Below the pieces are notes generated by a model, which saw only the letters and a program-made list of their open reading frames with translations, ran no database searches and was not told where the DNA came from. From Candidatus Doriopsillibacter californiensis (lineage in GTDB: Bacteria; Pseudomonadota; Gammaproteobacteria; Tethybacterales; Persebacteraceae): a stretch of 64,000 bases of DNA. The translations under genes and the position numbers were made by a program. The stretch is from positions 48,114-112,113 of the forward strand of contig JANQAO010000003.1 of NCBI GenBank assembly GCA_030386295.1, in the 5' to 3' direction. This document shows positions 7,087 to 63,706 of the stretch, one piece after another. The first letter of the stretch is position 1; each line of letters begins with the position of its first letter.

Positions 7087-7327
7087 TACATCTCCTTATA
7101 AAAAAAGATTGAGAAAATCAACGTGAATTTAATAAACAGTCGCTTTTAGAGCAAACAGCGTGGGAAAGCAAACGTAATTTATCGCCACACTGTCATACAC
7201 TTGTGTTGGAAATGACGAAGGTACCACAATTGAAGATAGTTGTATTCACTTCTTCTAATTGTGGAATAAGTCATTGAAAATACGCGTTTGTGTAGGGTGC
7301 TGAAATTTTATAATTGAAATTGACACA

Positions 7328-7371: not shown

Positions 7372-8685
7372 TTAATATCGGTAATGTACTGGCTTAAACG
7401 GCCCTTCTTTTTTTACCCCAATATAAGCAGATTGTTTGTCACTCAACGTGGTGAGATTGGCGCCGACATGTGGCAGGTGTAATAACGCTACTCGTTCATC
7501 TAAATGTTTGGGTAGTACATGTACATCCACTGCATATTTGCTTGGATTGGTAAATAATTCAATCTGCGCCATGACTTGATTGGTGAAAGATGCCGACATG
7601 ACAAAACTTGGGTGACCGGTAGCGCAGCTGAGATTTACCAGCCGTCCTTCGGCGAGCAAAATAATGCGCTTGCCATCAGCAAATACAACGTGGTCTACCA
7701 GTGGCTTGATATTTTCAAAGCGGCATTTCTTGCGCAGTTCGGCAACTTGAATTTCGGAATCAAAATGACCGATGTTGCACAAAATTGCGTTGTTTTTCAT
7801 GCGTCGTGCATGTTCAACAGTAACAATATCCACATTGCCGGTGGCTGTAACAATAATGTCAGCTTGCTCACAGGCATCATCTACGGTTACCACGCGATAT
7901 CCCTCCATCGCTGCCTGCAGCGCACAGATCGGGTCTATTTCGGCAATCCACACTGTAGCACCCAACCCACGCAGCGACTGTGCCGAACCTTTGCCAACGT
8001 CGCCATAGCCGCAAACAATGGCGATTTTTCCGGCTACCATTACATCAGTTGCCCGTTTAATGCCGTCTACCAAAGATTCTCGGCAGCCGTACAGATTGTC
8101 AAATTTGGATTTGGTCACCGAGTCATTGACGTTAAACGCCGGACACTTGAGGGTGTTTTTGTTGTGCATGTCGTAGAGTCGTTGAACACCGGTGGTCGTT
8201 TCTTCGGAAACGCCCAGCAATTTGTCGGCTAATTCGGGATGCTTTTCGTGTATAAAAAAAGTAGCATCACCGCCGTCGTCCAATATCATGTTCGGGCTCC
8301 AGCCGCCGGGACCAAAAAAAGTGCGTTCTAAGCATTCTTCATATTCCGCTTCGGTTTCACCTTTCCACGCAAAAACGGGAACGCCGGTGGCGGCAATAGC
8401 AGCGGCGGCGTGGTCTTGTGTGGAAAAAATATTGCACGATGACCAACGCACACTAGCGCCTAACGCAGTAAGCGTTTCAATCAATACGGCGGTTTGTACT
8501 GTCATGTGTAGACAACCAGTAATGCGAGCTCCGTCCAATGGTTTATCGGCGGTCATTTCGCGGCGTAATTGCATGAGGCCAGGCATTTCAGTTTCGGCAA
8601 TGGTAATTTCGCGACGCCCCCAGTCGGCAAGCGAAATGTCGGCAACAGCGTAATCCTGTTCAATATTTGTGGCAGGCAAAGTCAT
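7372..8685 (-). CDS. ahcY: S-adenosyl-L-homocysteine hydrolase (adenosylhomocysteinase)
   Basis: 437 aa. It has the N-terminal [17 protein letters not shown] and an NAD-binding GYGDVGKG motif. Similarity to SahH runs the full length. Confidence 0.95.
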
Positions 8686-9009
8686 TCGTGTATTCTCCCA
8701 GCGAAATTAGATAAAAGTTGATTTTAAAGCAAGTGCCGGAAAAATGATAGAGACGAGCTGCTGTCTCCGCCATTTTGACAACTAGGCAATGTGCGGTGCA
8801 GGCTTTGTGTCATCCTAACGTGCCGCTTTTGTAGATTATAAAGAAGTAGCAAAGTGATGAAAGTTCAACTGTTAGCAGCTGGATTTTTGAATCTCATTTT
8901 TCGTAAGAAAAACATAAGCTGACGGCGACAACGGCGTCAAAAAAGATTAACCAAAATAGAATAACTTTTGATATTCGTTGCTAATTATTATAATTAGGCT
9001 TTCCACTGT

Positions 9010-9084
9010 GGGCGCTTAGCTCAGCGGGAGAGCGTCGTCCTTACACGGCGAATGTCGGGGGTTCGAAACCCTCAGCGCCCACCA
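9010..9084 (+). tRNA. tRNA-Val (anticodon UAC)
   Basis: A cloverleaf folded by hand. The acceptor stem is GGGCGCT/AGCGCCC, the anticodon stem TCGTC/GGCGA, the loop CTTACAC, the T-loop TTCGAAA and the end CCA. Confidence 0.9.
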
Positions 9085-9109
9085 CAGTTTTTGTGTTTTT
9101 ATTTCCTCA

Positions 9110-10096
9110 TCACACGGCAAATCCCGGCTCCACACCAAAACGATATTCGTGGTCGGAGGAAATAGATTGAAATGCCGCCGCTAGCGCAATCATGGCGGCA
9201 TTATCTCCACAATGCATCGGCAGTGGCGAACACAGTTCTGTATTTTTTGCTGCGCACACTGCTTGCAACGTGTTTTGCACGTATTTATTTTGCGCAACTC
9301 CACCCACGATGGCTAATCGCTCAGCGCCAAGTTTTTCAATCGCCTGCGATACTTGACGCGCCAGTCCGCGCGCTACTGTTGCTTGAAACGAGGCAGCAAT
9401 GTCGGCGCGTACGGCATCATCATCGCAGTCTTGTTTTGCCGCCAGTCGTCGCACAGCGGTTTTGAGGCCGCTGAAACTAAACTGGCAATTAGGCTGAGCC
9501 GGAGAGGGTAGAGAAAAACGTTCGGTGTTACCAGTTGCTGCAAGTTTTTCTAGCGCACCGCCGCCCGGATAACCCAAATCCAGTAATACTGCTGTTTTAT
9601 CAAAAGCTTCGCCGGCGGCATCGTCCAGCGTTTCTCCCAGTAGTAGTAATGAGTCCGGAGATTTTACCTGCCACAGTTGTGTATGGCCGCCGGATACCAG
9701 CAATGCCAAATAGGGAAAAGCAAAATGTGGATTAGATAATAGTGGTGATAGTAAGTGTCCGGCTAGATGATTTACACCGACTAGTGGCAATCCCCAGGTG
9801 AAAGCTAGTCCACTCGCGACTGTGGCACCAGCCAGTAGCGCGCTGGCTAGTCCGGGACCGCGTGTGTAGGCGATTTTGGTTGGTCGGACGTTGGTAGTTT
9901 TTAACAAGTCATCAACTAGCGGTAACGCCCGCCGTAGGTGATCGCGCGAAGCCAGTTCCGGTACTACGCCGCCATAGGGGCGGTGTCTTCGCCATTGTGA
10001 ATACACTCGTTCGCCAAGTAGTCCGCGTTGTTTTGAGTACAAAGCGCAGGCGGTTTCATCACACGATGTTTCAAATGCGAGAATGACTTTTTCCAT
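9110..10096 (-). CDS. tsaD: tRNA N6-adenosine threonylcarbamoyltransferase TsaD
   Basis: 328 aa with a Kae1/Gcp/TsaD fold. It begins MEKVILAFETSCDETACAL and ends in HCGDNAAMIA. Confidence 0.9.
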   Translation of the reverse strand: MEKVILAFETSCDETACALYSKQRGLLGERVYSQWRRHRPYGGVVPELASRDHLRRALPLVDDLLKTTNVRPTKIAYTRGPGLASALLAGATVASGLAFTWGLPLVGVNHLAGHLLSPLLSNPHFAFPYLALLVSGGHTQLWQVKSPDSLLLLGETLDDAAGEAFDKTAVLLDLGYPGGGALEKLAATGNTERFSLPSPAQPNCQFSFSGLKTAVRRLAAKQDCDDDAVRADIAASFQATVARGLARQVSQAIEKLGAERLAIVGGVAQNKYVQNTLQAVCAAKNTELCSPLPMHCGDNAAMIALAAAFQSISSDHEYRFGVEPGFAV

Positions 10097-10232
10097 AAAT
10101 GCGCGGTAAAAATAAAAAAATAATGATGGCTGTAGGCGAAATAGCTATGCTATTAGGTTATAAAACGATTGTAGCGAAAGCGCAAATAATTCTAACTTAA
10201 ATTACAGTTGTCAATTATGGGAAAATGGTAGG

Positions 10233-13100
10233 ATGAACAATCTCCCCGCTTTTGAAAAACACGCCAAACAAGAACACAAATATACTACCTGCTACATGTG
10301 TGCCTGCCGTTGTGGGGTGCGAGTAACGCTTGAAGATGGCAAAATTCGTTTTGTCCAAGGCAATCCCAATCATCCTGTCAATCGCGGGGTGCTATGCGGC
10401 AAAGGCAATGCCGCCATAATGAAGCAATATTCACCTGCTAAATTGCGAGCTCCTCTCATGCGCAAGCCGGGCAGTGAGCGTGGTAGCGGTGAATTTGTGG
10501 AAGTGTCGTGGGAACAAGCGATGGATACACTGACTCAGCGATTAGCTACCATTCGTGCTGACGATCCTAACAAACTGGCATTTTTTACAGGGCGTGACCA
10601 AATGCAAGCGCTCACTGGGTTATGGGCGACGCAGTTTGGTACACTCAATTGGGCAGCGCATGGTGGGTTTTGTTCGGTTAACATGGCAGCTGCTGGGTTG
10701 CTCACTCACGGTTATTCGTTTTGGGAATTTGGCGAACCTGATTGGGAGCAAACCAAATATTTTATGCTTTGGGGAGTGGCCGAAGATCACGCTTCCAACC
10801 CCATCAAAATTGGATTGAAAAAACTTAAAGAGCGCGGTGTCAAAATCGTTGCGATTAATCCAGTGCGCACAGGGTACCAGGCAATTGCCGATGAATGGGT
10901 GCCAATTACTCCCGGCGGTGACGGTGCTTTGGCACTGGCATTTATCCACGTATTACTGAGCGAACGGCGTATTGATGAGGAATTTTTAATTAGATACACC
11001 AATCTATCATGGTTGGTAGATGACGAAGGTCTTTTTGTACGCGACAGCGATGGTCGCCCATTGGCGTGGTGTTTAGAAAATAATGTGGTGATGGATGCGC
11101 AAAAATGTGACATTTGTCCGGCATTAGTTGGAGAATACACTCTTGCTGACGGCAGGTCTGTGCGTACTGCCATGACTTTGGCAATGACACAATATTTAGA
11201 TGAATCGAACTCGCCGGAAGCTATGACGGCGCACTGTGGTGTGCCGGCGGCAACTATTCGCCGCCTCGCGCGCGAGCTTGCCAATGTGGCTTTTTCACAG
11301 CCGGTGGTAGTGAATACGCCGTGGATAGATAGTGCCGGAAGGCAACACGAATCGTTTGTTGGGAGGCCAGTCTCTATGCACGCGATGCGTGGCGTGTCAG
11401 CGCATAGCAACGGCTTTCAAAGTTGTCGCGCTATTCACTTTTTGCAAGCGCTTTTGGGAAGTATGGATTGTCCGGGTGGGCACTTGGCTAAACCTCCGTA
11501 TCCGAAGCATCCACCAGCGGTACCCAAACCAGCTAACCGCAGTGCGTCTGGACAACCACTGTCGGCACCACCGCTTGGTATTCCGCGTGGACCGGAAGAT
11601 TTGGCGGTGGACGCCGCCGGTAAACCATTGCGGATTGATCACGCTTTTTCATGGGACGCGCCACTATCGGCACACGGTGCCATGCATATGGTTATTGCCA
11701 ACGCGGCTCGTAAAAATCCGTACGCCATTGATACTTTAATGATTTTTATGGCGAATCTGGCGTGGAATTCTTCCATGAATACGGACGGTACTGTCGCCAT
11801 GCTCACCGCCAAAGAAGACAACGGCGATTACACCATTCCATTTATTGTGGTGAGTGACGCTTTTCATTCCGAAATGGTGAATTATGCCGATTTGGTAATT
11901 CCTGACACTACTTATTTAGAGCGTCATGACACCATCTCTATGTTAGATCGTCCTATTTCCGAACCGCACGCTGCTTGTGACGCGATTCGCGCACCGGTGG
12001 TGGAGCCGCAATATAATACTCGTCCGTGGCAGGAGGTGTTGGTAGAGTTGGCAGGGCGATTGCAATTTCCAGTTTTTACCGGTGAAAATGGCGCGCCACG
12101 CTACGCTGATTACAAGGATTTTATTACTCGCTGGGAAAAAGCTCCTGGCATTGGTTTTTTGGCTGGTTGGCGGGGAGAAAACGGTGACGAACCTCTGCGG
12201 GGAGCGCCTAATCCTGACCAATGGCAGCGATATATTGATAATGAATGCTTTTTTCGGGAAGAGTTGCCACCATCAACGCGTTATTTTCGCTTTGCCAATC
12301 GTGATTATTTGCAATATGCCAAACGTGCCGGATGGACAGAAAGCGATGCTCCGATAGTGATTGAGCTATACAGCGAAACCCTGCGAAAATTTCAGCGCGC
12401 CGGAGAGGGAATGGGTGAACACGTTCCACCTGAAGAATACCAACGTCGCCGCTTGCGCGAGTATTGCCGACCGTTACCATTTTACTATCGTCCGTTAGAG
12501 CAAGCACGGCAGGATGGCGATAGTTATCCATTTTATGCCGTTACTCAACGACCTATGTTTATGTATCATTCGTGGGATTCTCAAAATGCGTGGTTGCGCC
12601 AAATTGCTGCTGACAACCATATTCACATTAATCGCACTCGTGCTGCTGAAATGGGTATTGCTGACGATGATTGGGTCTGGCTGTCGTCGCGCATTGGTAA
12701 AGTGGCGGCGCGCGCACGTTGTATGGACGGCGTAGCTGCTGATACGGTATGGACGTGGAATGCCATTGGTAAAGGTGCGGGTGCTTGGGGGCTGGCAGCA
12801 AACGCCAATGAGAGCGTGGAAGGATTTTTATTAAACAGCCTTATTGGTGAGTGGTTGCCGCCGGTAAACGATGAGTCACCGCTTAGTAACAGTGATCCAA
12901 TTACCGGTCAAGCGGCGTGGTATGACTTGCGAATCAATATTACTAAAATGCGCGCCGAGGAAATTACCGCTTTATCGCACTCGTCGGCATTTGCTACACT
13001 ACCCAATATGGCGCAAGAAAATGAGAAACCGTTGCGCTACATTGCGGGTTCTGCCGTTAATTTGCATCGCACATTTCTTGATACATTATTCCGTAAATAA
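10233..13100 (+). CDS. molybdopterin (Mo-bisPGD) oxidoreductase catalytic subunit, Psr/Phs/SoeA-like, no Tat signal
   Basis: 955 aa. The N-terminus carries a CYMCACRCG...C [4Fe-4S] motif (C-x2-C-x3-C-x27-C) and FVQGNPNHPVNRGVLCGKG. There is no twin-arginine leader. No FeS or NrfD-like partner genes lie downstream. Confidence 0.7.
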   Translation: MNNLPAFEKHAKQEHKYTTCYMCACRCGVRVTLEDGKIRFVQGNPNHPVNRGVLCGKGNAAIMKQYSPAKLRAPLMRKPGSERGSGEFVEVSWEQAMDTLTQRLATIRADDPNKLAFFTGRDQMQALTGLWATQFGTLNWAAHGGFCSVNMAAAGLLTHGYSFWEFGEPDWEQTKYFMLWGVAEDHASNPIKIGLKKLKERGVKIVAINPVRTGYQAIADEWVPITPGGDGALALAFIHVLLSERRIDEEFLIRYTNLSWLVDDEGLFVRDSDGRPLAWCLENNVVMDAQKCDICPALVGEYTLADGRSVRTAMTLAMTQYLDESNSPEAMTAHCGVPAATIRRLARELANVAFSQPVVVNTPWIDSAGRQHESFVGRPVSMHAMRGVSAHSNGFQSCRAIHFLQALLGSMDCPGGHLAKPPYPKHPPAVPKPANRSASGQPLSAPPLGIPRGPEDLAVDAAGKPLRIDHAFSWDAPLSAHGAMHMVIANAARKNPYAIDTLMIFMANLAWNSSMNTDGTVAMLTAKEDNGDYTIPFIVVSDAFHSEMVNYADLVIPDTTYLERHDTISMLDRPISEPHAACDAIRAPVVEPQYNTRPWQEVLVELAGRLQFPVFTGENGAPRYADYKDFITRWEKAPGIGFLAGWRGENGDEPLRGAPNPDQWQRYIDNECFFREELPPSTRYFRFANRDYLQYAKRAGWTESDAPIVIELYSETLRKFQRAGEGMGEHVPPEEYQRRRLREYCRPLPFYYRPLEQARQDGDSYPFYAVTQRPMFMYHSWDSQNAWLRQIAADNHIHINRTRAAEMGIADDDWVWLSSRIGKVAARARCMDGVAADTVWTWNAIGKGAGAWGLAANANESVEGFLLNSLIGEWLPPVNDESPLSNSDPITGQAAWYDLRINITKMRAEEITALSHSSAFATLPNMAQENEKPLRYIAGSAVNLHRTFLDTLFRK

Positions 13101-13121: not shown

Positions 13122-13456
13122 TTGCCAACAAAAGGAGAAAATAATATGGCTTATGTTGACGGGTACATTGCTGCCGTGCCTACAGCAAACAAAGATAGTT
13201 ACAAAGAACACGCGGTTAAGGTAGCGGCAGTTTTTAAGGAGAACGGCGCGCTGAAAACTGTTCAGTGTTGGGGTGATGAAGTGCCAGAAGGAAAAAATAC
13301 ATCATTTCCAATGGCGGTTAAATGCAAAGAAGATGAGGCGGTTGTATTTGTATGAAAAAATCGATGGCCGATCCGCGTATGCATCCTCCCGGTAATCAGA
13401 TGCTCTTTGATGGTAAGAGAATTATATTTGGCGGTTTTGAGGTAATTGCTGAGTAA
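13122..13456 (+). pseudogene. DUF1428 (YbaA-like) protein with an internal deletion and frameshift
   Basis: The N-terminal 77 aa (MAYVDGYIAAVP...EAVVFV*) match DUF1428. The C-terminal part (MADPRMHPPGNQMLFDGKRIIFGGFEVIAE) continues in another frame from 13352. About 18 aa of the family consensus are missing in between. Confidence 0.55.
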
Positions 13457-13525
13457 TAATAATTTGGTTTTATTTACGTTTGCGTGCTGAGAAAGTATCT
13501 AAGCACATACCGATTGAGCTCAATG

Positions 13526-15445
13526 CTAAGCAGCTTTTACTTCCTCATCACCGATATTCGAATTTTTCTTTTCGTCTGATTTTTCGTCTTCATCATCTTC
13601 TTCATCGTTATCTAGATCCGCCGGTGGCGTAGGAGGAGACTCCTGTGGCGGTTCTGGCGGGCGTCCTTCCATAATGGCGTTAATTTGCTTCTCATCTATG
13701 CTCTCCCAGTCCAATAATGCTTTTGTCATAACTTCTACTTTGTCACGATTATCTTCTAGCAGCTTTCGTGCGCGAGTATATTGATCGTCAATAATACGGC
13801 GAATCTCGGCGTCCACCTCGCGCATGGTAGTTTCAGATACTTGTCGCTGAGAAGAAATGGAACGTCCCAAAAATACTTCGCCTTCATCTTCACTGTACAC
13901 CATAGTGCCCATATTTTTGCTCATGCCCCACTGTGTCACCATTCGTCTCGCCATTGTCGTGGCGCGTTCAAAGTCGTTAGAGGCGCCGGTAGTCATTTGA
14001 CTCATAAACAGCTCTTCAGCTATACGTCCAGCCAGTAAAACACAAATATTGCCCAAGATTTGGGATTCAGTCATGTTGTAGCGATCTTCGGCTGGCAATT
14101 GCATAGTTACACCTAATGCTCGCCCTCGTGGAACGATAGTAACTTTGTGTACTGGATCGGTTTCAGGTAATAGTCGCGCGACAACGGCATGTCCTGACTC
14201 GTGATAGGCGGTGTTTTTTCGTTCTTTTTCTGGCATAACAATGGAACGACGTTCGGCACCCATGATAATTTTTTCTTTGGCGAACTCAAAATCAGTCATG
14301 CGTACGATTTTGCGTTTGCAGCGCCCAGCATACAGCGCTGCTTCGTTTACTAGATTGGCCAAGTCGGCGCCAGCAAAGCCCGGCGTACCACGAGCTACCA
14401 CTTTGGCATCTACATCACGACCAATAGATACCTTGCGCATGTGCACGAGCAAGATTTCTTCACGCCCACGAATATCTGGCAGTGGCACTACCACTTGCCG
14501 GTCAAAGCGTCCGGGGCGCAATAATGCTGGATCCAATACATCAGGTCGGTTGGTGGCAGCAATAATGATGACGCCAGTGTTTTCTTCAAATCCATCCATC
14601 TCAACTAATAGCTGATTGAGTGTTTGCTCACGCTCATCATTACCACCACCAAGTCCGGTACCACGCTGGCGACCAACGGCGTCAAGTTCGTCTATAAAAA
14701 CGATGCACGGCGCACTTTTTTTGGATTGTTCAAACATGTCGCGCACACGAGAAGCGCCGACCCCTACGAACATTTCCACAAAATCAGAACCGGAAATAGA
14801 AAAGAAAGGCACTTTTGCCTCGCCGGCAATCGCGCGTGCTAGCAACGTTTTTCCAGTTCCCGGGCTACCTACCATCAGCACGCCGCGCGGGATTTTGGCG
14901 CCCAGTTTGCGAAAACGTCCGGGCTTGCGCAAAAATTGAACTAATTCACTGACTTCGTTTTTTGCTTCTTCACAGCCGGCTACGTTTTCAAATGTCACAC
15001 GATTTTCATTTTCGTCCATGACTCGAGCGCGACTTTTGCCAAATGAAAAAGCACCGCCACGTCCGCCACCTTGCATACGCTGCATAAAAAATATCCACAC
15101 GCCGATAAGCAATAGCATGGGAAACCAAGAAACGAAAATAGTGAAAAGAAAAGATCTTTCTTCTTCTGGAGTGGCTTCCACTTCCACGCCTGCTTTGCGC
15201 AAGTCAGACGCCATAAACACATCGCTGGGCGCGTGGGCAGTGACAATTTCGTTGGTTTCTGTGCGCCCCTTTAATTCAGAGCCATCAATTTTGACGCGTA
15301 CAAACAGCCCCTCTTCGGCGCGACGCATAAACTCAGAGTAGGGGATGCTGTCATCGCCAATATTGCCACGTAATTGGCCAAACAAAAAAACGACGCCCAT
15401 GAAAAGCATCGTCCATATAATAAAGGTCCTGATTGCCGGATGCAT
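13526..15445 (-). CDS. ftsH: ATP-dependent zinc metalloprotease FtsH
   Basis: 639 aa with N-terminal TM helices, an AAA Walker A motif GSPGTGKT, a HEXXH protease motif (HESGHAVV) and an acidic C-terminal tail. Confidence 0.95.
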
Positions 15446-16148: not shown

Positions 16149-16595
16149 ATGTCTCCTGTTGTCATTGTTAATAATGCGCCCATTGATGCGGGCGCTGAAA
16201 GCGGTCATATTCACGCTGCTACTGCTGGTGACGCCGGTGCGGTGCTGTGTTTTAGCGGAGCAGTTCGTGGTGGTGATGTGCTGGCGATGACGTTGGAACA
16301 CTATCCAGACATGACGGAACTCGCTTTGCGAGATATTGCGGTGGCAGCAGAAAAACGTTGGGCACTGTTGGCGGTGCGGGTACGTCATCGTGTCGGGCGC
16401 ATGATGCCGGGAGAAATTATTGTTTTTGTTGGTGTGGCTACTACGCATCGTGCTGATGCTTTTGCCGCTGGTTCCTACATCATGGACTATCTTAAAACAC
16501 AGGCGCCATTTTGGAAAAAAGAAGAAACCACGGCCGGTTGTCGTTGGGTGGATGCTCGCGATACTGATGATGATGCCCGAAATCGTTGGGAATAG
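16149..16595 (+). CDS. moaE: molybdopterin synthase catalytic subunit MoaE
   Basis: 148 aa. FSGAVRG and IMDYLKTQAPFWKKE match MoaE signatures. No moaD lies upstream. Confidence 0.8.
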   Translation: MSPVVIVNNAPIDAGAESGHIHAATAGDAGAVLCFSGAVRGGDVLAMTLEHYPDMTELALRDIAVAAEKRWALLAVRVRHRVGRMMPGEIIVFVGVATTHRADAFAAGSYIMDYLKTQAPFWKKEETTAGCRWVDARDTDDDARNRWE

Positions 16596-17164
16596 TGAGC
16601 CTCATCGCCGTCATTGCCGCCGCCGCATTAGCCGACAATATTATTTTGGCGAAAATGTTAGGTTTGTGTCCGTTCACTGGACTGTCCAAGCGGCTAGATG
16701 TGGCCGTTGGTGTTGGCGTGGCGACGGCTGCAGTACTCACGCTATCCGCTGCTGCTGCGTGGGTTGTCAACGCTACGTTATTGCAAAACATATCGTCATT
16801 ACAGCCACTTATTTTTATCACATTAGCTGCGATAGTAGTGCAGGGAGCAGAATTAGCTATGCGCCTGTGGATGCCGCTCATGCACCGGATGCTGGGGTTA
16901 TATTTGCCGCTTATTGCGACCAATTGTGCGGTGCTGGGGGTAATGTTGCTGGCGGTGCGCAAGTCACCAGATTCTTTTATTGAAGCGGTAGCGCGTGGTT
17001 TTGGCGGTGGGGTAGGCTTTTTGCTGGCAATGGTGTGCTTAGCCTTAGTGCGCGAGCGCATAACTGATTCGCAAGTGCCGGTAGCCATGCGCGGGGCACC
17101 GCTTACTATGATCACAATAGGCTGGATGGCGCTGGCGTTTTCAGGGTTGCACGGAATTTTTTAA
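16586..17164 (+). CDS. rnfA: Rnf/Rsx electron transport complex subunit A
   Basis: 192 aa with six TM helices. KMLGLCPFTGLSKRLDVAVGVG and LPLIATNCAVLGV match RnfA/RsxA. It overlaps the moaE stop by 10 bp. Confidence 0.85.
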   Translation: MGIVSLIAVIAAAALADNIILAKMLGLCPFTGLSKRLDVAVGVGVATAAVLTLSAAAAWVVNATLLQNISSLQPLIFITLAAIVVQGAELAMRLWMPLMHRMLGLYLPLIATNCAVLGVMLLAVRKSPDSFIEAVARGFGGGVGFLLAMVCLALVRERITDSQVPVAMRGAPLTMITIGWMALAFSGLHGIF

Positions 17165-17172
17165 CAAATGCA

Positions 17173-33901: not shown

Positions 33902-34172
33902 ATTCATGAAATAAAGAGTAGTAATATTGAGCGTACGAATAGATAGCCTTATGTTTATGAAAAAAAGCGGACGAATTCAATAACCATCGCTTAGATAAGT
34001 ATGTTTGTGACCGCGATTACGGGTAACAAATTTGTCGCGTTTTTTGAAAATTTTGTTTTTTACTTTATTTTAAATAGTGTGGTATAAATGGTAAGTAAGT
34101 GTATTAGATGCATTTGTGGTGTTGTGTCTAGTAATATTTTGTGGTATCGCAATAAAAAGAAGGAGAGAGCAA

Positions 34173-34643: not shown

Positions 34644-34702
34644 GCGGAAATTTTGTCGTATCCAAAAATTAAAATAATACATTCCTGCAGAGGAGGACGT
34701 AA

Positions 34703-37084: not shown

Positions 37085-37099
37085 CAGGAGGATATCATC

Positions 37100-56272: not shown

Positions 56273-57277
56273 TTATTTTGTTAACCCCAGTACTTCTTCC
56301 CAGAGTGCTCGCGGCAAGGTAATGCCGTGTCGTGTGGCAAATTCTCGAGTGGTGCGACTATTTTCACCGGGTAGGCGGGTGTTGGGCGCTGCTTCTGCGA
56401 TGCGACAAAAAAGCCGCTCCATCTGTGCGTGAAAATTTTCCTGCTGCGGAGCAATTGCAATAAGAAGTTGACCGATGTATGGCGGCGTACCACTATCGTC
56501 AAAAAATGATGAGGCGTCAAAAGCTAGATTACCACCGGCCAGCGGCGCACACAGTATTTCTACCATCAGCGCGAGTGCGGAGCCTTTGGCCTCTCCCATT
56601 GGCAGCAGAGCGCCTGCAAGAGCTGCTGTTGCATCGGTGGTAGGTTGCCCAGTTGCGTCTACCGCCAAGCCCTGAGCGATGGATTCGCCTCGCTGTTTGG
56701 ACGCCATGACTTTGCCTCGCGCTATTTTGGATAGCGATAAATCGACAAATAATGGTGGGGCGTTTTTGCGTGGCGCGGCAAAAGCAATAGGATTAGTACC
56801 ATAAACGGCAGCGCCAACAGGCCACGGCGCCATGGCTTTGGGAGAATTGCTAAACGCCAATGCCAGTAGTCCAGCGGCAGCTAGTTGTTCTGCCCAATAC
56901 CCCATGCGCCCACTGTGATGTGAATGATTCACGGCGGCACAAGCAATGCCAGCAGCGGGTGCAGTTTCTATTAATTTACGAACAGCCAATTCTAGTGCAG
57001 GATAAGCAAAGCCGGAAGCAGCGTCTATTTGCACGTAACCCGTTTTTAATTGTGTGGCAGTAGGTATGGCATTACCGCAAATCTTGCCAGTACGTACCTG
57101 TGCCACATAAGCCTGTAGCCGTCGTAGACCATGTCCTTGCTGACCGCATGCATCGGCGTCGGCAAGAGCCATTGCGGTTGATTTTGCCGCAACGTCGCTA
57201 ACGCCGGCAGTAGTAAGCACGTTTTGTATTGTGACGGTTAACTCAGTTACTGAAACGATAATGTTATCGTCACTCAT
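56273..57277 (-). CDS. Ldh_2-family (malate/L-lactate/sulfolactate) dehydrogenase, ComC-like
   Basis: 334 aa. The N-terminal half (GQQGHGLRRLQAYV, NHSHHSGRMGYWAE) is typical of type-2 malate/L-lactate dehydrogenases. It is the last gene of the TRAP-dehydrogenase cluster. Confidence 0.75.
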   Translation of the reverse strand: MSDDNIIVSVTELTVTIQNVLTTAGVSDVAAKSTAMALADADACGQQGHGLRRLQAYVAQVRTGKICGNAIPTATQLKTGYVQIDAASGFAYPALELAVRKLIETAPAAGIACAAVNHSHHSGRMGYWAEQLAAAGLLALAFSNSPKAMAPWPVGAAVYGTNPIAFAAPRKNAPPLFVDLSLSKIARGKVMASKQRGESIAQGLAVDATGQPTTDATAALAGALLPMGEAKGSALALMVEILCAPLAGGNLAFDASSFFDDSGTPPYIGQLLIAIAPQQENFHAQMERLFCRIAEAAPNTRLPGENSRTTREFATRHGITLPRALWEEVLGLTK

Positions 57278-57293
57278 TTATTTATGGTGCAAT

Positions 57294-58265
57294 TTATGGA
57301 ATTAGTACAATTTTAGGCGCTGCAACATTGCCGGCCAATAAGTCAGCAAAAGCTCGCGCACCGTCACTTAGCGGGCGCGTTTCAAACCAATCTAGTGCCC
57401 CAAGTTTACCTTTGCCCATCCATTCTACTGTTTCTTTGAATTCGGTCATGGTGTACGTATAAGAACCAACTAAAACAATTTCTTGTAGCGTGAGGCGACG
57501 CATATCAAAACCACCATCAGCTGACGCCAAGCCAATATGCACGACCACGCCGCCTGGTGCGGTTATGGTAGATGCCTGCCGTCGTGTTTGTTCATGTCCA
57601 ACGGCATCAATCACCACGTCCATCGCTGTTGGCAGAGCTTCGGGAGTAACAATATGGAAGTTTCCCGTTTTTTCTAGGGCTTTTCGCCTTCGTGGATTAT
57701 TGTCAGCAATCCATACTTCTTTGGCACCACGTGCAGTTAGTGACAAGGCTGACGCCAAACCAATGGCGCCGCCGCCCAACACTGCTGTTTGACACTCGGC
57801 TAGCGAGCGACGGCTATGCACCACGCCTAAACCGGCAGTATGATGACCGCAAGCAAGTGGTTCTGCTAGCGACCCTTGCTGTAAAGATAATGAATTCGGT
57901 AGTGGTACGATATTTTGTGGCGGTATGGCTAGTTGCTCAGCAAATGCACCGGCGCGTGGTGGCATTGAAATAATTTGCCGTTGAAGGCATAGATTGGAAC
58001 GTCCAGCGCGGCAATAATCACAAGTTTCACATACTACTAGCGGATTAACGGTAACACGAGCGCCACTGGGAAGCATTCCCGCCGCTTCGTGTCCTAGAAT
58101 AAGTGGTGGTGGGCGGCGCTCGTCGTGTCCCAAATAAGCATGCATGTCTGAACCGCAAATGCCGACGGCATTAACATCAATAAGGGTATTGTCGTTATCT
58201 GCAATGGAATTAGGTTGTTCACAAAAACGAAGATTTTGTGAAGATTCATACAGAAGTGCTTTCAT
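57294..58265 (-). CDS. zinc-dependent medium-chain alcohol dehydrogenase (HpsP-like position)
   Basis: The GICGSDMHAYLGHD...ILGHEAAG zinc-ADH signature, and a structural-zinc Cys cluster (CETCDYCRAGRSNLC). Confidence 0.75.
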   Translation of the reverse strand: MKALLYESSQNLRFCEQPNSIADNDNTLIDVNAVGICGSDMHAYLGHDERRPPPLILGHEAAGMLPSGARVTVNPLVVCETCDYCRAGRSNLCLQRQIISMPPRAGAFAEQLAIPPQNIVPLPNSLSLQQGSLAEPLACGHHTAGLGVVHSRRSLAECQTAVLGGGAIGLASALSLTARGAKEVWIADNNPRRRKALEKTGNFHIVTPEALPTAMDVVIDAVGHEQTRRQASTITAPGGVVVHIGLASADGGFDMRRLTLQEIVLVGSYTYTMTEFKETVEWMGKGKLGALDWFETRPLSDGARAFADLLAGNVAAPKIVLIP

Positions 58266-58431
58266 GGTGCGCTCTTTTTGGATATAGACAGGCTCATTTT
58301 TTTGTCAAGGAAGAATTTAATGTTAACAGGAAAAACTTTAATCCTATACGGGCGATGTTAATAATTGTATCGGAATTATTTTATTATTTTTGTAAAAATA
58401 TGTTGGTATTAGTTAATTTAAATAAAAGAAG

Positions 58432-59223
58432 TTACTTTGCCAAAAAACCACCGTCTACAGGTAATAACAGCCCGGTCAAATATGCCGCAGCTGAGGAAGC
58501 TAAAAATACCGCGGCACCATCCATATCAGAAAGTGCCCCATTGCGTCCCAATAGGGTTGATGCCGCCAATTTTTCTATTAATTCTTTATCTTCAAAGACA
58601 ATGTCAGTCATTTCACTGGGGAAAAACCCGGGAATGAGCGCATTGACGGTAATGCCGCGCTCGCCCCACGCTCGTGCTAGTAGCCGCGTAAGTTGCGCTA
58701 CACCGCCTTTGGAAGCGCCATAGGCAGCATCTCCTAGTCCTGCGCGCAGCGATTGCAAAGAACCGACATTGATGATAGCACCGCCTTTATCCATACCGGT
58801 TGCTAATTCTCGTGATAAAAAAAATGGGGCGCCTAAATTAACAGCCAACGTTTTTTCCCAATTATCTAGGGTGATTGCTGATGTGGATTCGGCAGGGTCA
58901 GATGAAGATCGCAAATTAACGCCGGCGGCGTTTACTAAAATAGACGGTGCGCCAAAACACGCTGCTGCTTCCACCGCCGTTTGCGGAATGCTTCTAGTAT
59001 CAGACAAATCTGCCGTAACTACTGCAGCTTGGTTGCCTCCACAAACATTAATAATTTCAGCCGCTGCATCATCAAGCTTGTTTTTACGCCGTCCAATGAG
59101 TACTGTGCGAGCTCCAGCTTGTGCCAGTGCCAGACCGATACGTCGCCCAATGCCAGTGCCGCCGCCGGTGATAACTGCCACCCGTCCGTGAAGACCGAAT
59201 AGGTTATTAATGAAATTGTTCAT
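58432..59223 (-). CDS. short-chain dehydrogenase/reductase (HpsO-like position)
   Basis: TGGGTGIGR in the Rossmann fold, the NAAG motif, and a YGASK catalytic tetrad region. Confidence 0.75.
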   Translation of the reverse strand: MNNFINNLFGLHGRVAVITGGGTGIGRRIGLALAQAGARTVLIGRRKNKLDDAAAEIINVCGGNQAAVVTADLSDTRSIPQTAVEAAACFGAPSILVNAAGVNLRSSSDPAESTSAITLDNWEKTLAVNLGAPFFLSRELATGMDKGGAIINVGSLQSLRAGLGDAAYGASKGGVAQLTRLLARAWGERGITVNALIPGFFPSEMTDIVFEDKELIEKLAASTLLGRNGALSDMDGAAVFLASSAAAYLTGLLLPVDGGFLAK

Positions 59224-59238
59224 AGCGGCTGCTTTCAG

Positions 59239-60564
59239 TTAGCTGTTATCGGACAAGTTTTCTGATTGTAGAATAAATTTTTCATCGGGAAACCATTTCG
59301 CCAAGCGCAAATCCGCAGTGCGGGCGTGTCCTTCCATGCCTTCTAATCGCGAAATACGTGCCGTAGCGGCACCAATATCGCGATTGGCTTCGCGCGTCAT
59401 GCGTTGCCAAGTAACGGTTTTCATGAATTTTGCGACTGATAGACCACCAGTGTAACGTCCCGCGCCTTTTGTAGGCAAAATATGATTGGGTCCAGACACT
59501 TTGTCACCGTAAGCCACAGTGGTTTCTTCACCCAAAAAGAGAGAACCGTAATTTATAAGACGAGATTGCCACCAATCCAAGTTAGCGCAGTGTACTTCTA
59601 GATGTTCAGCCGCATAACGGTCAGATAGCACTGCCGCGTCTTCTTGCGAATCGGCTACAGCCACTTCACCATATTCTTGCCACGATTGCATGGCGTGAGA
59701 GCGGTTAGGTTCTGGTAATGCTTCTATCATCTGTGGTACCAATTGCATAACCTTATTTGCTAATGAAGATGACAATGATATAAGCCACGCTGGTGAGTTG
59801 GGGCCGTGTTCTGCCTGACCTACCAAGTCGCAGGCGACGATTTCAGCATCTGCCGTATCGTCTGCAATAACAAGAATTTCTGTCGGACCAGCAAACATGT
59901 CAATGCCGGTAAATCCATACAATAACCGTTTGGCCTCGGCTACATATTGGTTGCCAGGACCGGCCAGCACATCAGCAGAGTGACCAGAAAACAAGCCAAA
60001 GGCCATAGCCGCAATGCCTTGCACACCACCTAAATTCAAGATATGATCAGCGCCGCATAAATCTAACGTGTATAAAATTGCCGGATGCATACCGCCGTGC
60101 GCATTGCTAGGTGGTGAGCAGGCGATTATGTTTTTTACACCTGCTTCTTTGGCTGTGCCCACGCTCATAATCGCCGATGCTACATGTGCGTAGCGGCCAC
60201 CCGGGACATAACAACCGGCGGTTTGTACGGGCACATGACGATGACCGGCGGTTACTCCCGGGTGTAATTCGGTTTGTGCATTGGGTAACCATGATTTTTG
60301 GGCGCGGGCAAAAGTGCACACTTGCTCACGGGCAAAAGCGATATCATTACGAATTGATTGCGGTACCCGCTTAGCAGCGGCAGCCCGAGCTTCAGGAGAA
60401 ACGAGAATGTCACCATCCCAGCCGTCAAAATTACTGGTATAACGTCGTGCAGCTTCTTCGCCACCGCTTTCAATATCGTCTAGCATAGCGCGTACTTTGT
60501 CTCGCACATCACTTTCGCCGCTAGAAGCAGATTTTGGAGCTTTTTTTAAGAATTCAATAGACAT
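59239..60564 (-). CDS. histidinol dehydrogenase-family enzyme (sulfopropanediol 3-dehydrogenase HpsN-like)
   Basis: 441 aa with a HisD fold (GPGNQYVAEAK, QAEHGPNS). It is not in a his operon but sits inside a TRAP-transporter/dehydrogenase cluster. Confidence 0.8.
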   Translation of the reverse strand: MSIEFLKKAPKSASSGESDVRDKVRAMLDDIESGGEEAARRYTSNFDGWDGDILVSPEARAAAAKRVPQSIRNDIAFAREQVCTFARAQKSWLPNAQTELHPGVTAGHRHVPVQTAGCYVPGGRYAHVASAIMSVGTAKEAGVKNIIACSPPSNAHGGMHPAILYTLDLCGADHILNLGGVQGIAAMAFGLFSGHSADVLAGPGNQYVAEAKRLLYGFTGIDMFAGPTEILVIADDTADAEIVACDLVGQAEHGPNSPAWLISLSSSLANKVMQLVPQMIEALPEPNRSHAMQSWQEYGEVAVADSQEDAAVLSDRYAAEHLEVHCANLDWWQSRLINYGSLFLGEETTVAYGDKVSGPNHILPTKGAGRYTGGLSVAKFMKTVTWQRMTREANRDIGAATARISRLEGMEGHARTADLRLAKWFPDEKFILQSENLSDNS

Positions 60565-60581
60565 ATATTTCCCTTTCTACT

Positions 60582-61922
60582 TTAATTATTGTTGTTACTT
60601 GTACCGTAAATGTACTCTGGTAGCCATAGCGCAATTTGCGGGAAAATGATAATCAGAGCTAAGCCGATTAGCTGGATAATCATAAATTGAATCATGCCAT
60701 AGTAAATATCTTTTAAAGGCCATTCCGGTACGACGCCTTTTAAGAAGTATGCTGATAGGGCTACCGGTGGTGACAGCCACGCAGTTTGTAGATTAACGGC
60801 AACCAAAATACCAAACCATAGCAAGTTAATGTCTAATTGTTCAACGAGTGGTATCAAAATTGGCACGATAATCAACACAATTGGAACCCACTCCAGTGGC
60901 CAGCCCAGTAAAAATATTAATGCCATTATGAGCATCAATGTTCCCATTTGGGACAACTCCAAACTGAGTAATAATTCGGTCAGCATTATTGGTGTTCCCA
61001 AACGAGAAAATACCGCACCAAAAAAATTGGATGCTGCCACCAATAATAAGATTAGTGCTGAAATTTCCAAAGTCTTAATCAGCGCATCGTTCATTTTTTT
61101 CCAGGTTAATCGGCGGTATGCTAGCCCTAGTAATAAAGCGCCAAAGGCACCACAGCCAGCTCCCTCGGTTGGCGTGGCAAAACCTAACAAAATACTACCC
61201 AACGCGGAGAACACCAGTAACGATGGTGGCACTAGGCCAAGAAAAAATTCACGCCAAATTTCTCCCATGTTTTCAGCTCGTTCAGCTACTGGCATAGCAG
61301 GACCTAACTTGGGATTAATAATACAGCGACCAACTGCATATAAGGCATATAGTACCGCCATCATGATTCCAGGAATAATGGCGGCAGCAAACAAATCAGT
61401 TACTGGTACTTCAAGTACAGGACCCATTACTACCAGCATGATGGATGGTGGAATAAGAATGCCTAGCGTTCCGCCTGCGGTAATAGTGCCAGCTGTTAAC
61501 CGTATATCGTAGTTGGCACGATTCATTGTTTTTGCTGCCATGATGCCTAAAATCGTCACCGAAGCACCAACAATACCAGTAGCGGCGGCGAAAATAGTAG
61601 AGACAAATAATACAGCTAGGTAGAGTGCACCTCGAACTCTAGACAGCATTAGCCGTACGGCCTCAAATAGCCGTTCCATAAGTCCGGCCTGTTCCATTAG
61701 GATACCCATAAACACAAATAGCGGTACTGCGGCTAATGTCTGTTCCAACATGACGCTGTTAAACTGCAGAGTCATTAAATAAAAAACGACTTTACCGAAT
61801 CCGAGATAACCAAAAACAAAACCTAAAAAGAGCAGAGTAAAAGAAATTGGAAAGCCGATAAAAATTGCAAAGAGCATTACTCCTAGCATAACGAGACCGA
61901 GTATTTCTGGGCTCATGGCCAA
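60582..61922 (-). CDS. TRAP transporter large permease (DctM family)
   Basis: 446 aa with about 12 TM helices and DctM similarity along the full length. Confidence 0.9.
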   Translation of the reverse strand: MAMSPEILGLVMLGVMLFAIFIGFPISFTLLFLGFVFGYLGFGKVVFYLMTLQFNSVMLEQTLAAVPLFVFMGILMEQAGLMERLFEAVRLMLSRVRGALYLAVLFVSTIFAAATGIVGASVTILGIMAAKTMNRANYDIRLTAGTITAGGTLGILIPPSIMLVVMGPVLEVPVTDLFAAAIIPGIMMAVLYALYAVGRCIINPKLGPAMPVAERAENMGEIWREFFLGLVPPSLLVFSALGSILLGFATPTEGAGCGAFGALLLGLAYRRLTWKKMNDALIKTLEISALILLLVAASNFFGAVFSRLGTPIMLTELLLSLELSQMGTLMLIMALIFLLGWPLEWVPIVLIIVPILIPLVEQLDINLLWFGILVAVNLQTAWLSPPVALSAYFLKGVVPEWPLKDIYYGMIQFMIIQLIGLALIIIFPQIALWLPEYIYGTSNNNN

Positions 61923-62521
61923 ATCCCTCTTGTCATCGCATAATAACTTTTAAGGGCTTCTGATACGCCCTGAATGAGCAACAGCAAGACCCCAATAGGC
62001 ATGGCGCTACGTGCTGGTGCGAGGTAAGGCATCCACGCCGAATCCATGCCACGTTCTCCGCTTTTCCACGCATCAAAAGCATAATCTGAGCATACCCATA
62101 AAAAGATAAGCATGCCGGGAAAGTACAACATAAAATAAAGAAAAAAGTCTACTGTCCCCTGCGTGCGTGGAGACCATAGACGGTATAAAAAGTCGGCGCG
62201 AATATGCACTCCACGCATTAGCGCATAGCCCGAGCCCAACATAAACATAGCACCATAAATCATGCGACTAAGGTCGTATGCCCACATGGTAGGAGCAATG
62301 AAAACGTAGCGGACAAATACCTCATACACCATGGCGGTGAATAACGGTACTGTCATCCAGCAAACAATTTTCCCCACGCGCAAGCTAAATTTGTCAATGC
62401 TGACAATGAGGCGTGCAGCTAGCGGCGACATATCATCGGGAAGACCAGTAGATGAGTCTCGCCGTTCGGCGATTAGTTCATCAACTAAATCAATTTCTGG
62501 TTCATCAGTTTTTTGATTCAT
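61913..62521 (-). CDS. TRAP transporter small permease (DctQ family)
   Basis: 202 aa with four TM helices. It overlaps the dctM start by 10 bp. Confidence 0.8.
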   Translation of the reverse strand: MNQKTDEPEIDLVDELIAERRDSSTGLPDDMSPLAARLIVSIDKFSLRVGKIVCWMTVPLFTAMVYEVFVRYVFIAPTMWAYDLSRMIYGAMFMLGSGYALMRGVHIRADFLYRLWSPRTQGTVDFFLYFMLYFPGMLIFLWVCSDYAFDAWKSGERGMDSAWMPYLAPARSAMPIGVLLLLIQGVSEALKSYYAMTRGIWP

Positions 62522-62542
62522 GACTCACACTCTCTCTTGTGA

Positions 62543-62577
62543 CAAAAAAAATACCCGCCGCAAAAAAGACGGCGGGT
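62543..62577 (-). terminator. intra-operon hairpin plus T-run between the TRAP binding-protein gene and the permease genes
   Basis: On the plus strand, AAAAAAAATACCCGCCGCAAAAAAGACGGCGGGT. On the minus strand this is an 8-bp perfect stem (ACCCGCCG/CGGCGGGT) followed by ATTTTTTTT. It lies between the dctP stop (62603) and the dctQ start (62521). Confidence 0.5.
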
Positions 62578-62602
62578 AAATAAAGAAAATATTGTTTCTT
62601 TA

Positions 62603-63706
62603 TTATTTTTTGCTTTCCACGTAGGCATTGCCAAGATTGGCATTGGTGGTTTGTGCACCAGCCCAAAATGGAACTGCTACATCGGCAAAGTCACGCATAG
62701 ATGTCCATACTTTGAGGAAGAATGGATTTTCTTTCTTGTGCTTGTCAAAAATGTTACTTACCGCATTCATGTACTCCGGAAAATAATCTTTGGGAGTATC
62801 ATGCAACACCACTCCGTGATTTTCGGTGAGGTCTTTGAGGGCCTTGCCGTTTTCGTAAATACGATACGCCATGGCACGCATCAGAGAAGCATCAGCAGCA
62901 ACTTCCATTGCCCGTTGGTTTTCCGGAGAGATGCTGTTCCACACATCTTTATTGATGTACATGTCAGCATTTACGACCACTTGGTGTAGACCTTGCAGAT
63001 AATAATTTTTGAGGATTTTTTGAAAGCCAAAAACACTATCCGGTTTGGGGCAGCACCACTCAGCAGCGTCAATCGTACCTTTTTCAAGAGCTGGTAAGAT
63101 GTCACCACCACCCATGGCTACGGCTGCTACGCCGATATCGTTATACGCTTGCCCTGGAATTCCTGGAGGAGCACGAAAACGATACTTACGAAAATCATCC
63201 ATGCTGTTAATTGGCTCTTTGAACCAGCCTAGTGCTTCAGGACCAACCGGCTGCAACATTATTCCTTTAACATTGACGCCCATTTCGTCCCACAGTTCGT
63301 TGTACAGCTCTTTGCCGCCACCAAACATGTACCACGACACCCAAGCAATGTTGTCAATGCCCAAGCCGGCACCTGCCGCTGGTGAACCAAACAACATTGT
63401 TGCCGGATGTTTGCCTGACCAGTAATGCGTCCAAGCAAAGCCGCCTTCAACCAACCCTTTGTCTACAGCGTCAAGCGTTTCTTTGACGCCAACGATTGCG
63501 CCAGCTGGCAAAATTTCAATTTCAACTTCGCCGTTGGTGAGAGCTTTGACATTGTCCGCATAATCGCGTAGCATCGTAACTTCATCCGCTTTAGCAGAAA
63601 TTACCGATTGAACTCGGATTTTTGTTTTTGCCGCTGCCGTTAAAGGCATGGCAACTGCTGCTACCGCAAGCGCGACAGTAACACTTTTCATTAAAGAATG
63701 ATTCAT
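62603..63706 (-). CDS. TRAP transporter substrate-binding protein (DctP family, SBP family 7)
   Basis: 367 aa with a signal peptide. The DctP-type fold matches the mannitol/chloroaromatic/organosulfonate-type TRAP binding proteins. Confidence 0.85.
   Translation of the reverse strand: MNHSLMKSVTVALAVAAVAMPLTAAAKTKIRVQSVISAKADEVTMLRDYADNVKALTNGEVEIEILPAGAIVGVKETLDAVDKGLVEGGFAWTHYWSGKHPATMLFGSPAAGAGLGIDNIAWVSWYMFGGGKELYNELWDEMGVNVKGIMLQPVGPEALGWFKEPINSMDDFRKYRFRAPPGIPGQAYNDIGVAAVAMGGGDILPALEKGTIDAAEWCCPKPDSVFGFQKILKNYYLQGLHQVVVNADMYINKDVWNSISPENQRAMEVAADASLMRAMAYRIYENGKALKDLTENHGVVLHDTPKDYFPEYMNAVSNIFDKHKKENPFFLKVWTSMRDFADVAVPFWAGAQTTNANLGNAYVESKK

Follow-up and report, generated by a model that had tools for sequence, protein, structure and literature searches.

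The solitary soeA gene and its neighborhood

The window, by which we mean the whole 64-kb stretch of DNA analyzed herein, is contig Ga0416805_05 of the JGI assembly 3300036105, and the following features in it were relevant to the gene under study.

10097..10232, + strand: tsaD/soeA intergenic region, the two genes being divergent
10233..13100, + strand: soeA, ATG start, 955 aa; assigned as the catalytic Mo-bisPGD subunit of the sulfite:quinone oxidoreductase SoeABC, encoded alone
10290..10397, + strand: codons of the FS0 [4Fe-4S] cysteine motif, C20-x2-C23-x3-C27...C55
10671..10673, + strand: codon of Cys147, the predicted molybdenum ligand
13122..13355, + strand: truncated DUF1428 gene, directly 3' of soeA
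13526-15445, − strand: ftsH, convergent, after the DUF1428 fragment
16149..16595, + strand: moaE, molybdopterin synthase catalytic subunit, intact (Pfam MoaE, 103 bits)
56273..63706, − strand: putative sulfonate (DHPS-type, hps-like) uptake/oxidation cluster, from NCBIfam and Pfam scans

The soeA product, with the N-terminus MNNLPAFEKHAKQEHKYTTC, was matched by the Pfam domains Molybdop_Fe4S4 (residues 17-66, including the FS0 motif), Molybdopterin (71-608), and Molydop_binding (767-859), in good agreement with the original prediction of a 955-aa Mo-bisPGD protein having an N-terminal [4Fe-4S] motif. That prediction had also placed the protein in the cytoplasm for want of a Tat leader, and had pointed to an upstream alternative start as the place to look for one. 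When the sequence was read directly and compared with the list of open reading frames, an in-frame TAA was identified at 10161-10163, with no ATG, GTG, or TTG codon in the stretch from there to the ATG at 10233. Because of this in-frame stop and the lack of any start codon before 10233, a Tat leader on the soeA product was excluded. A promoter and terminator scan around soeA yielded counts at the level of shuffled sequences.

Across 84 aligned SoeA sequences, C20, C23, C27, and C55 showed no variation wherever the column was present, and Cys147 was invariant (84/84). The inspection of the active-site ligand by alignment, which had been proposed along with the prediction, was done with HMMER and paired Cys147 with Cys173 of the Thermus thermophilus PsrA (2vpw), which is the Mo ligand of that enzyme (Jormakka et al. 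2008).

The downstream genes were also as predicted, namely a decayed DUF1428 gene followed by the convergent ftsH. The Pfam match of the former covered only profile positions 2-67 of 102, and the remnant was split by gene callers into pieces of 77 and 34 aa. It occupies the slot of soeB in canonical operons, and is regarded as context and no part of the enzyme. Other genes near soeA were decayed as well, with DUF3500 split and Ring_hydroxyl_A truncated, and an rnfA-rnfB pair and a GltD-like FeS flavoprotein were located 3-6 kb from soeA. The retention of moaE shows that the cofactor pathway required by SoeA is kept.

Relationship to SoeA and other molybdoenzymes

The window protein was revealed to share approximately 62% identity along its whole length with the SoeA of canonical soeA-soeB(Fer4_11)-soeC(DmsC) operons from Alkalilimnicola, Ectothiorhodospira, Thioalkalivibrio, Acidihalobacter, and others, the range being 60-64% against more than 70 operon-linked genes. 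Since NCBIfam holds no SoeA model and none of its models reached its cutoff with this protein, we built an HMM from 71 SoeA sequences, all operon-linked and taken from outside the clade of the window protein, against which the latter scored 1610 bits. The best curated model was PhsA (NF012032), with only 205 bits, far under the cutoff of 694. These values bore out the original description of the protein as SoeA-like, and, judged by its sequence, the product of 10233-13100 is a true SoeA orthologue. P0077 was named 'sulfite dehydrogenase (quinone) subunit SoeA' by JGI.

The other candidate families were rejected on their NCBIfam scores. The formate dehydrogenase alpha subunit gave 155 bits (cutoff 666), DmsA/YnfE of the DMSO reductases 139 bits (cutoff 778), NapA of the nitrate reductases 98-99 bits (cutoffs 904-931), ArrA 97 bits (cutoff 1600), and TtrA 91 bits (cutoff 1750). 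A grouping with formate dehydrogenases or nitrate reductases, which had been named as the outcome that would speak against the prediction, was thus not seen; the separation from PsrA, PhsA, TtrA, and ArrA was likewise based on these curated-HMM scores.

The protein shares with PsrABC and PhsABC the CISM-type A/B/C architecture and the Cys ligand of molybdenum, and PsrA 2vpw is the closest solved structure, although the alignment with the T. thermophilus protein was good only in the N-terminal third (E 1e-39 overall). The catalytic subunits of Psr and Phs have Tat signals and are oriented towards the periplasm, whereas the window SoeA cannot carry such a signal, and polysulfide or thiosulfate reductase was accordingly rejected on both the PhsA score and this property.

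soeB and soeC on a separate contig and gene arrangement in relatives

With the Alkalilimnicola ehrlichii SoeB and SoeC as tblastn queries (E<=1), neither gene was detected on either strand anywhere in the window, nor were adjacent B and C subunits found in another frame, a case that had been raised against the original prediction. The description of soeA as an orphan without partner subunits therefore held for the 64-kb window but not for the genome. The search for soeB/soeC-like genes in the rest of the genome, which the prediction had proposed, revealed an intact xseA-soeB-soeC block elsewhere in this assembly, on contig Ga0416805_07, with the following genes.

L091 7290-7994 (Ga0416805_07): soeB, 234 aa, 16 Cys corresponding to four FeS motifs
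L091 8001-8900 (Ga0416805_07): soeC, 299 aa, multiple hydrophobic segments

This SoeB opens directly with the first FeS motif and has no Tat signal. The tetranucleotide correlation between the soeBC contig and the window was 0.956, compared with 0.963 between the window halves and 0.25-0.82 for relatives. We infer that contigs _05 and _07 derive from one genome, as they share an assembly identifier, agree in composition, and can be linked through the synteny seen in a relative. A scan of the metagenome collection with an exact 40-mer of soeA gave 0 hits, the dataset apparently being absent from it.

A similar separation was observed in relatives. On one chromosome, ERZ26051029 contig_3, soeA lies at approximately 351 kb and xseA-soeBC at approximately 175 kb, about 175 kb apart, and on another, ERZ25068034 contig_1, soeA lies at approximately 542 kb and hisD-soeBC at approximately 868 kb, about 324 kb apart. 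L097 carried purL-soeBC without soeA. For the solitary-soeA genomes P0001 (1,245,154 bp), L005, and L010, and also for L007, P0015, and P0016, no soeC on a contig of fitting length stood among the 120 matches listed. In L095, A, B, and C were separated from one another by inserted genes, an interrupted operon that represents an intermediate stage, while L009 and L011 of the same clade retained an intact soeABC operon. Intact, interrupted, and fully split stages are hence all extant among the relatives, and the series offers a small, tidy case of operon break-up in reduced genomes.

In a neighbor-joining tree, the small-genome SoeA clade was supported by 100/100 bootstrap replicates. A clade of the solitary genes exclusive of L009 and L011, which a single split event would produce, obtained only 6/100 support. 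It is conceivable, though unlikely, that in this clade the genes of a membrane complex needing all three of its subunits became unlinked, probably on more than one occasion, and have long been kept functional, as a case either of genome-wide operon disintegration tolerated by selection or of SoeA having acquired a second electron partner, independent of SoeBC, in the cytoplasm.

Since soeBC is intact in the same assembly, relatives are split likewise, and all the subunits are reportedly expressed in the relative Ca. Zeuxoniibacter abyssi (PMC11525543), the gene was assigned to a split SoeABC system. It is very probably the soeA of a split soeA/soeBC system, that is, of the known cytoplasm-facing SoeABC oxidizing sulfonate-derived sulfite in a small-genome marine symbiont. 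What we describe is a known enzyme in an unusual gene arrangement, and no new enzyme or mechanism. A study that called soeABC by its presence in one operon (PMC6382920) required soeA, soeB, and soeC together; the gene order of the window departs from this, in a criterion of gene order and not in a property of the protein. The finding matters mainly for annotation: in symbionts of the Tethybacterales type, pipelines and studies demanding such an operon would miss or mislabel SoeABC, or would list soeA as an orphan of unknown function.

The original prediction had offered a soluble reductase with a different electron donor as its alternative. Under that reading, SoeA would stand alone, passing electrons from FS0 to another soluble carrier such as a ferredoxin or Rnf-linked protein, and soeBC would serve something else or nothing. 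The absence of any partner of soeA from the window, a context of the solitary soeA that differs in every relative, and the nearby rnfA-rnfB pair and GltD-like flavoprotein are consistent with it. On the other hand, the soeBC pairs likewise stand as 'orphans', there being no gene for another catalytic Mo subunit next to them, they are still intact and retain all 16 Cys, and all three subunits are reportedly expressed in Z. abyssi. Nor did we find any remodeling specific to the arrangement. Operon-linked SoeA has 423 columns with a conservation of at least 97%, of which 339 were kept in the solitary set and 21 were changed, mostly by conservative substitutions. These 21 columns were considered as a mark of a lost SoeB interface and rejected as such, since nearly all of them differed in L009 and L011 as well, which bear the operon, and they thus reflect lineage and not arrangement. 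A stand-alone SoeA is therefore regarded as very unlikely, given that soeBC is intact in the same assembly and relatives show the same split.

We also considered whether soeA is simply a remnant of an operon that was taken apart as the symbiont genome eroded, and is now becoming a pseudogene, as the decayed DUF1428, DUF3500, and Ring_hydroxyl_A neighbors might suggest. In contrast to these neighbors, the 955-codon frame is intact with all cofactor residues present, moaE for cofactor synthesis is retained, and the identical SoeA protein was found on 11 contigs from several samples. The dN/dS values of solitary soeA pairs, from lineages diverged to 63-83% identity, were 0.04-0.19 (0.057 for the unsaturated pair), compared with 0.02-0.15 for operon-linked pairs, and the outgroup distance of the solitary genes overlapped that of the operon-bearing clade members. 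The solitary soeA is under purifying selection, and its being a mere relic is extremely unlikely.

Proposed function and sulfite source

SoeABC is known as the sulfite:quinone oxidoreductase of Allochromatium vinosum (Alvin_2491-2489) (Dahl et al. 2013) and Aquifex aeolicus (Boughanemi et al. 2020), and its direct functional evidence consists of genetics in the former and biochemistry in the latter. The cytoplasmic (N-side) orientation without a Tat signal serves as a criterion for SoeABC in the literature. The Thioalkalivibrio soeABC was defined via homology to that of A. vinosum (PMC6382920), and the tie of the window SoeA to the A. vinosum enzyme goes via these Thioalkalivibrio orthologues. 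Besides the SoeA identity noted above, the present system agreed with the SoeABC of the Alkalilimnicola, Ectothiorhodospira, and Thioalkalivibrio operons in the three Pfam domains, the FS0 motif, the Cys ligand of molybdenum, the lack of a Tat signal in both SoeA and SoeB, the 16-Cys SoeB, and the DmsC/NrfD-type SoeC anchor. It differed from the operonic SoeABC in its solitary soeA, with soeBC on another contig here and 175-324 kb away in relatives.

The products of soeA, soeB, and soeC are predicted to assemble, with sulfite as the likely substrate of the complex. Organosulfonate breakdown would release sulfite in the cytoplasm, which would then be oxidized to sulfate at the Mo-bisPGD center with Cys147 as the ligand. 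The electrons would leave SoeA by way of its FS0 [4Fe-4S] cluster, enter the four [4Fe-4S] clusters carried by SoeB, and be handed to the quinone pool by the NrfD/DmsC-type anchor SoeC. As for the genes, the ancestral soeABC operon has very probably been broken up in this lineage, leaving soeA alone between tsaD and the DUF1428 remnant, and soeB and soeC side by side at a separate locus, behind xseA on contig _07.

The cluster at 56273..63706 encodes TRAP DctP/Q/M, a HisD-like dehydrogenase, an SDR, a Zn-ADH, and an Ldh_2-family (sulfolactate/malate-type) dehydrogenase, the last of which scored 179 bits with the sulfolactate dehydrogenase model, under its cutoff of 500. The substrate of the cluster, a DHPS-type sulfonate, is suggested by this gene set. 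No desulfonating enzyme (Xsc, SuyAB, or CuyA) was seen in the window, and it is thus only by inference that the cluster was placed upstream of SoeABC, as the supplier of the sulfite that the complex would clear from the cytoplasm. The original prediction had likewise connected the protein to sulfite from a sulfonate cluster; the cluster was confirmed, and the role is plausible and the same as that reported for a relative (PMC11525543).

The host is related to the sponge-associated Persebacteraceae (Tethybacterales). Because it is a heterotrophic symbiont with a reduced genome, unlike the sulfur lithotrophs in which SoeABC is known, the sulfite here probably comes from organosulfonates and not from rDsr/Hdr. 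Once the split is recognized, the path by which these abundant sponge and marine symbionts convert host-derived sulfonates (DHPS, taurine) into sulfate becomes complete again.

That the SoeABC-like enzyme encoded by the split genes of this clade might act on another sulfur or oxyanion substrate, or work reductively, appears quite unlikely to us. The clade does form a long branch, with mean Kimura distances of 0.53-0.63 to other SoeA compared with 0.31 among those others, a curated SoeA model is absent from NCBIfam, and the function of SoeABC has been directly addressed only in the two organisms above. However, the 339 kept columns and the mostly conservative nature of the 21 changes argue against altered chemistry, as do the sulfonate-catabolic genes of the organism, which would yield sulfite, and the transcriptome of a relative, which ties SoeABC to taurine degradation (PMC11525543).

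This relative, Z. abyssi (L007), is a glass-sponge symbiont of the Persebacteraceae, in which taurine-to-sulfite catabolism is highly expressed and SoeABC was interpreted as serving the detoxification or oxidation of taurine-derived sulfite; the split arrangement of the soe genes is not discussed in that paper (PMC11525543). Its SoeA belongs to the same 100/100 clade and is 70% identical to that of the window, and its soeA is likewise solitary within 10 kb. The two hosts differ in that they represent different genus-level lineages, and the sulfonate cluster of the window is of the DHPS type (hps-like), whereas the emphasis in Z. abyssi is on taurine genes.

Reading frame and assignment as SoeA

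The gene and its immediate surroundings were found to be arranged as the original prediction had described them, including the decayed state of the downstream DUF1428 gene:

10233..13100, + strand: soeA ORF, ATG start, 955 aa
13122-13355: truncated DUF1428 gene, next after soeA (Pfam match covering only profile positions 2-67 of 102)
following the DUF1428 gene: convergent ftsH (ORF list and gene calls)

The protein carries the three Pfam domains of a Mo-bisPGD catalytic subunit (Molybdop_Fe4S4, 17-66; Molybdopterin, 71-608; Molydop_binding, 767-859) and the N-terminal FS0 cysteine motif C20-x2-C23-x3-C27...C55. Since an in-frame TAA is located at 10161-10163 and no ATG, GTG or TTG occurs between it and the ATG at 10233, a twin-arginine leader via an alternative start is impossible, and the predicted lack of a Tat leader thus stands. 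The absence of signal peptides here fits SoeABC, which a review of the NrfD family (PMC8076601) describes as a sulfite:quinone oxidoreductase with an SoeAB module probably directed towards the cytoplasm.

None of the curated NCBIfam models reached its cutoff for this protein. The best score, 205 bits, was that of PhsA, whose cutoff is 694, and the Fdh, DmsA, Nap, ArrA and TtrA models scored far lower relative to their cutoffs, so that no grouping with formate dehydrogenases or nitrate reductases was seen. The nearest solved structure, Thermus thermophilus PsrA (2vpw), aligned well with the N-terminal third only. Among thousands of full-length relatives in a large protein database, homologues of Ectothiorhodospira, Alkalilimnicola, Acidihalobacter and similar sulfur oxidisers showed approximately 62% identity, one of which (P0077) bears the JGI name 'sulfite dehydrogenase (quinone) subunit SoeA'. 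Directly after the homologue in A. ehrlichii come genes for a Fer4_11 protein of 230 aa and a membrane protein of DmsC type (315 aa), with tusA, fccAB and soxYZ around, and this arrangement is the canonical soeABC operon. When 80 loci, one genome per species, were fetched and examined by tblastn, soeA, soeB and soeC stood in tandem at every locus approximately 60-64% identical to the window protein, except at contig ends. Against an HMM built from 71 operon-linked SoeA sequences, with the window's own clade left out, the protein scored 1610 bits. The fetched set also included loci of Thioalkalivibrio, for which soeABC has been defined by homology to the genetically characterised SoeABC of A. 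vinosum (PMC6382920). The operon-linked homology, the HMM score and the Thioalkalivibrio link therefore indicated that the 'SoeA-like' call was correct, and, as judged from sequence, it can be classified as SoeA proper. The protein is a further member of a known enzyme family already described in this lineage; its sole unusual feature is the split soeA / soeBC arrangement with surviving intermediate stages.

Location of soeB and soeC

In the 64-kb window, a tblastn search with SoeB and SoeC of A. ehrlichii as queries gave no match on either strand at E<=1, and thus no soeB or soeC is concealed in another frame, as had been anticipated. The claim of an orphan enzyme lacking partner subunits, however, did not survive the search beyond the window. 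A SoeC profile made from L009 and L011, the two operon-bearing loci of the window's clade, matched a protein (P0127) on contig Ga0416805_07 of JGI 3300036105, the same assembly in which the window is Ga0416805_05. This contig carries an intact xseA-soeB-soeC block: soeB, called by the gene caller as only 159 aa, has a 234-aa ORF from the ATG at position 7290 of the fetched locus (L091), in which 16 cysteines make up four FeS motifs, and soeC encodes 299 aa with multiple hydrophobic segments. Tetranucleotide usage of Ga0416805_07 correlated with that of the window at r = 0.956, as compared with 0.963 between the window halves and 0.25-0.82 for relatives.

The same split was observed in relatives. 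The closest loci (L001, L004-L008, L010, L012, L032 and L087; 64-83% identity) have no soeB or soeC in their flanks, and these solitary-soeA loci form one clade with L009 and L011 (100/100 bootstrap). Its members have small genomes of about 1.2-2.05 Mb and include the sponge symbionts Ca. Persebacter sydneyensis and Ca. Zeuxoniibacter abyssi (Persebacteraceae, Tethybacterales). On one contig of 1,872,348 bp, soeA (P0007) lies at ~351 kb and xseA-soeB-soeC (SoeC, P0154) at ~175 kb; on another of 1,773,455 bp, soeA (P0010) lies at ~542 kb and hisD-soeB-soeC (SoeC, P0137) at ~868 kb. Locus L097 has purL-soeB-soeC without soeA. No other molybdoenzyme gene was present beside any solitary soeBC pair. 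On the simplest interpretation, solitary soeA and solitary soeBC belong together as partners; a soluble SoeA that acts on its own with some other partner seems unlikely, and nothing specific speaks for it.

Locus L095 (1-5894; ERZ25072282 contig_6) looks like an intermediate between the intact and split arrangements: soeA is followed by three inserted unannotated genes (114, 313 and 154 aa), soeB, an Mrr-type nuclease gene (Mrr_cat/DUF8426) with LysE, and soeC. Elsewhere, a DarT-Macro (DarTG-type toxin-antitoxin) gene pair (L089, 7893-9630) adjoins the solitary soeBC of ERZ25068034, and AAA_23/SLFN_AlbA_2/N6_N4_Mtase defence-type genes lie beside the solitary soeA of L087; such mobile or defence islands may mark rearrangement points. 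A tatD-holB-tmk-mltG block (8576-10909) is located 2.7 kb from the solitary soeBC pair in L097, and the same block in the window (52950-56203) directly adjoins the hps-like sulfonate cluster, possibly a trace of an earlier linkage of soe with this neighbourhood.

Residue conservation and selection

In an alignment of 84 SoeA sequences, the four FS0 cysteines were invariant wherever the column was present. The predicted active-site ligand, whose position the original prediction had singled out for alignment, is Cys147, invariant in 84/84 sequences; it aligns with PsrA Cys173, the Mo ligand of that enzyme. Conservation of 97% or more was seen at 423 columns of operon-linked SoeA, and the solitary genes have kept 339 of these. 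Consistent changes in solitary SoeA were confined to 21 columns, which mirror lineage rather than arrangement because nearly all were altered in the clade's two operon-bearing members too. A changed substrate, while conceivable, was suggested by neither residue conservation nor context.

Nei-Gojobori dN/dS values were 0.04-0.19 for solitary soeA pairs as against 0.02-0.15 for operon-linked pairs, with 0.057 for the unsaturated solitary pair L001-L004, and an intact moaE lies 3 kb from soeA. The selection data contradict the view of soeA as a decaying relic; the gene is under strong purifying selection despite several visibly decayed neighbours.

Genes that look eroded occupy 2001-2615, 4934-5784 and 13122-13460, as read from the gene calls of fetched locus L084 (offset +232 from window coordinates): a DUF3500 gene broken into two pieces of 93 and 104 aa, a Ring_hydroxyl_A gene cut to 203 aa and followed by a 79-aa fragment, and DUF1428 called in 77-aa and 34-aa pieces. 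This erosion fits a reduced symbiont genome in which gene decay is still under way.

Putative sulfite source and other genes

In the proposed mechanism, SoeA would convert cytoplasmic sulfite to sulfate at its Mo-bisPGD site, with electrons passing from its FS0 through the four SoeB clusters to quinone at SoeC. The sulfonate cluster to which the original prediction had tentatively traced the sulfite is present:

56273-63706, - strand: sulfonate-type cluster (TRAP DctPQM, HisD-like dehydrogenase, SDR, Zn-ADH, Ldh_2-family dehydrogenase)

Its gene set resembles the hpsKLM/hpsNOP/slc genes for 2,3-dihydroxypropane-1-sulfonate. The sulfolactate dehydrogenase model, at 179, scored below its cutoff of 500, and the window was found to lack a desulfonating enzyme; the cluster is plausibly the entry to a sulfite-generating pathway that we infer to be linked to SoeA. 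For Z. abyssi (L007), where soeA is likewise solitary within 10 kb, a published study (ISME J 2024, PMC11525543) reports the highest expression for the import of taurine and its breakdown to sulfite, along with expression of all SoeABC subunits.

Rnf genes are scattered as well: the window has just an rnfA-like and an rnfB-like gene (16586-17652), after which comes a GltD-like gene in convergent orientation, a single Rnf-Nqr gene occurs in L088 (10928-11527), and RnfD-like and FMN_bind (RnfG-like) genes directly follow soeC in L095 (5911-7294). Operon fragmentation may thus be general in the clade rather than soe-specific. A 472-aa ORF at 75-1493 has no Pfam match, nor do the JGI gene calls record one for it. 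The region 34116-37885 encodes a second molybdoenzyme, a 793-aa member of the xanthine dehydrogenase / aldehyde oxidase family (Ald_Xan_dh_C, MoCoBD_1, MoCoBD_2), together with flanking ORFs of 175 and 261 aa that are candidates for its FeS and FAD subunits.
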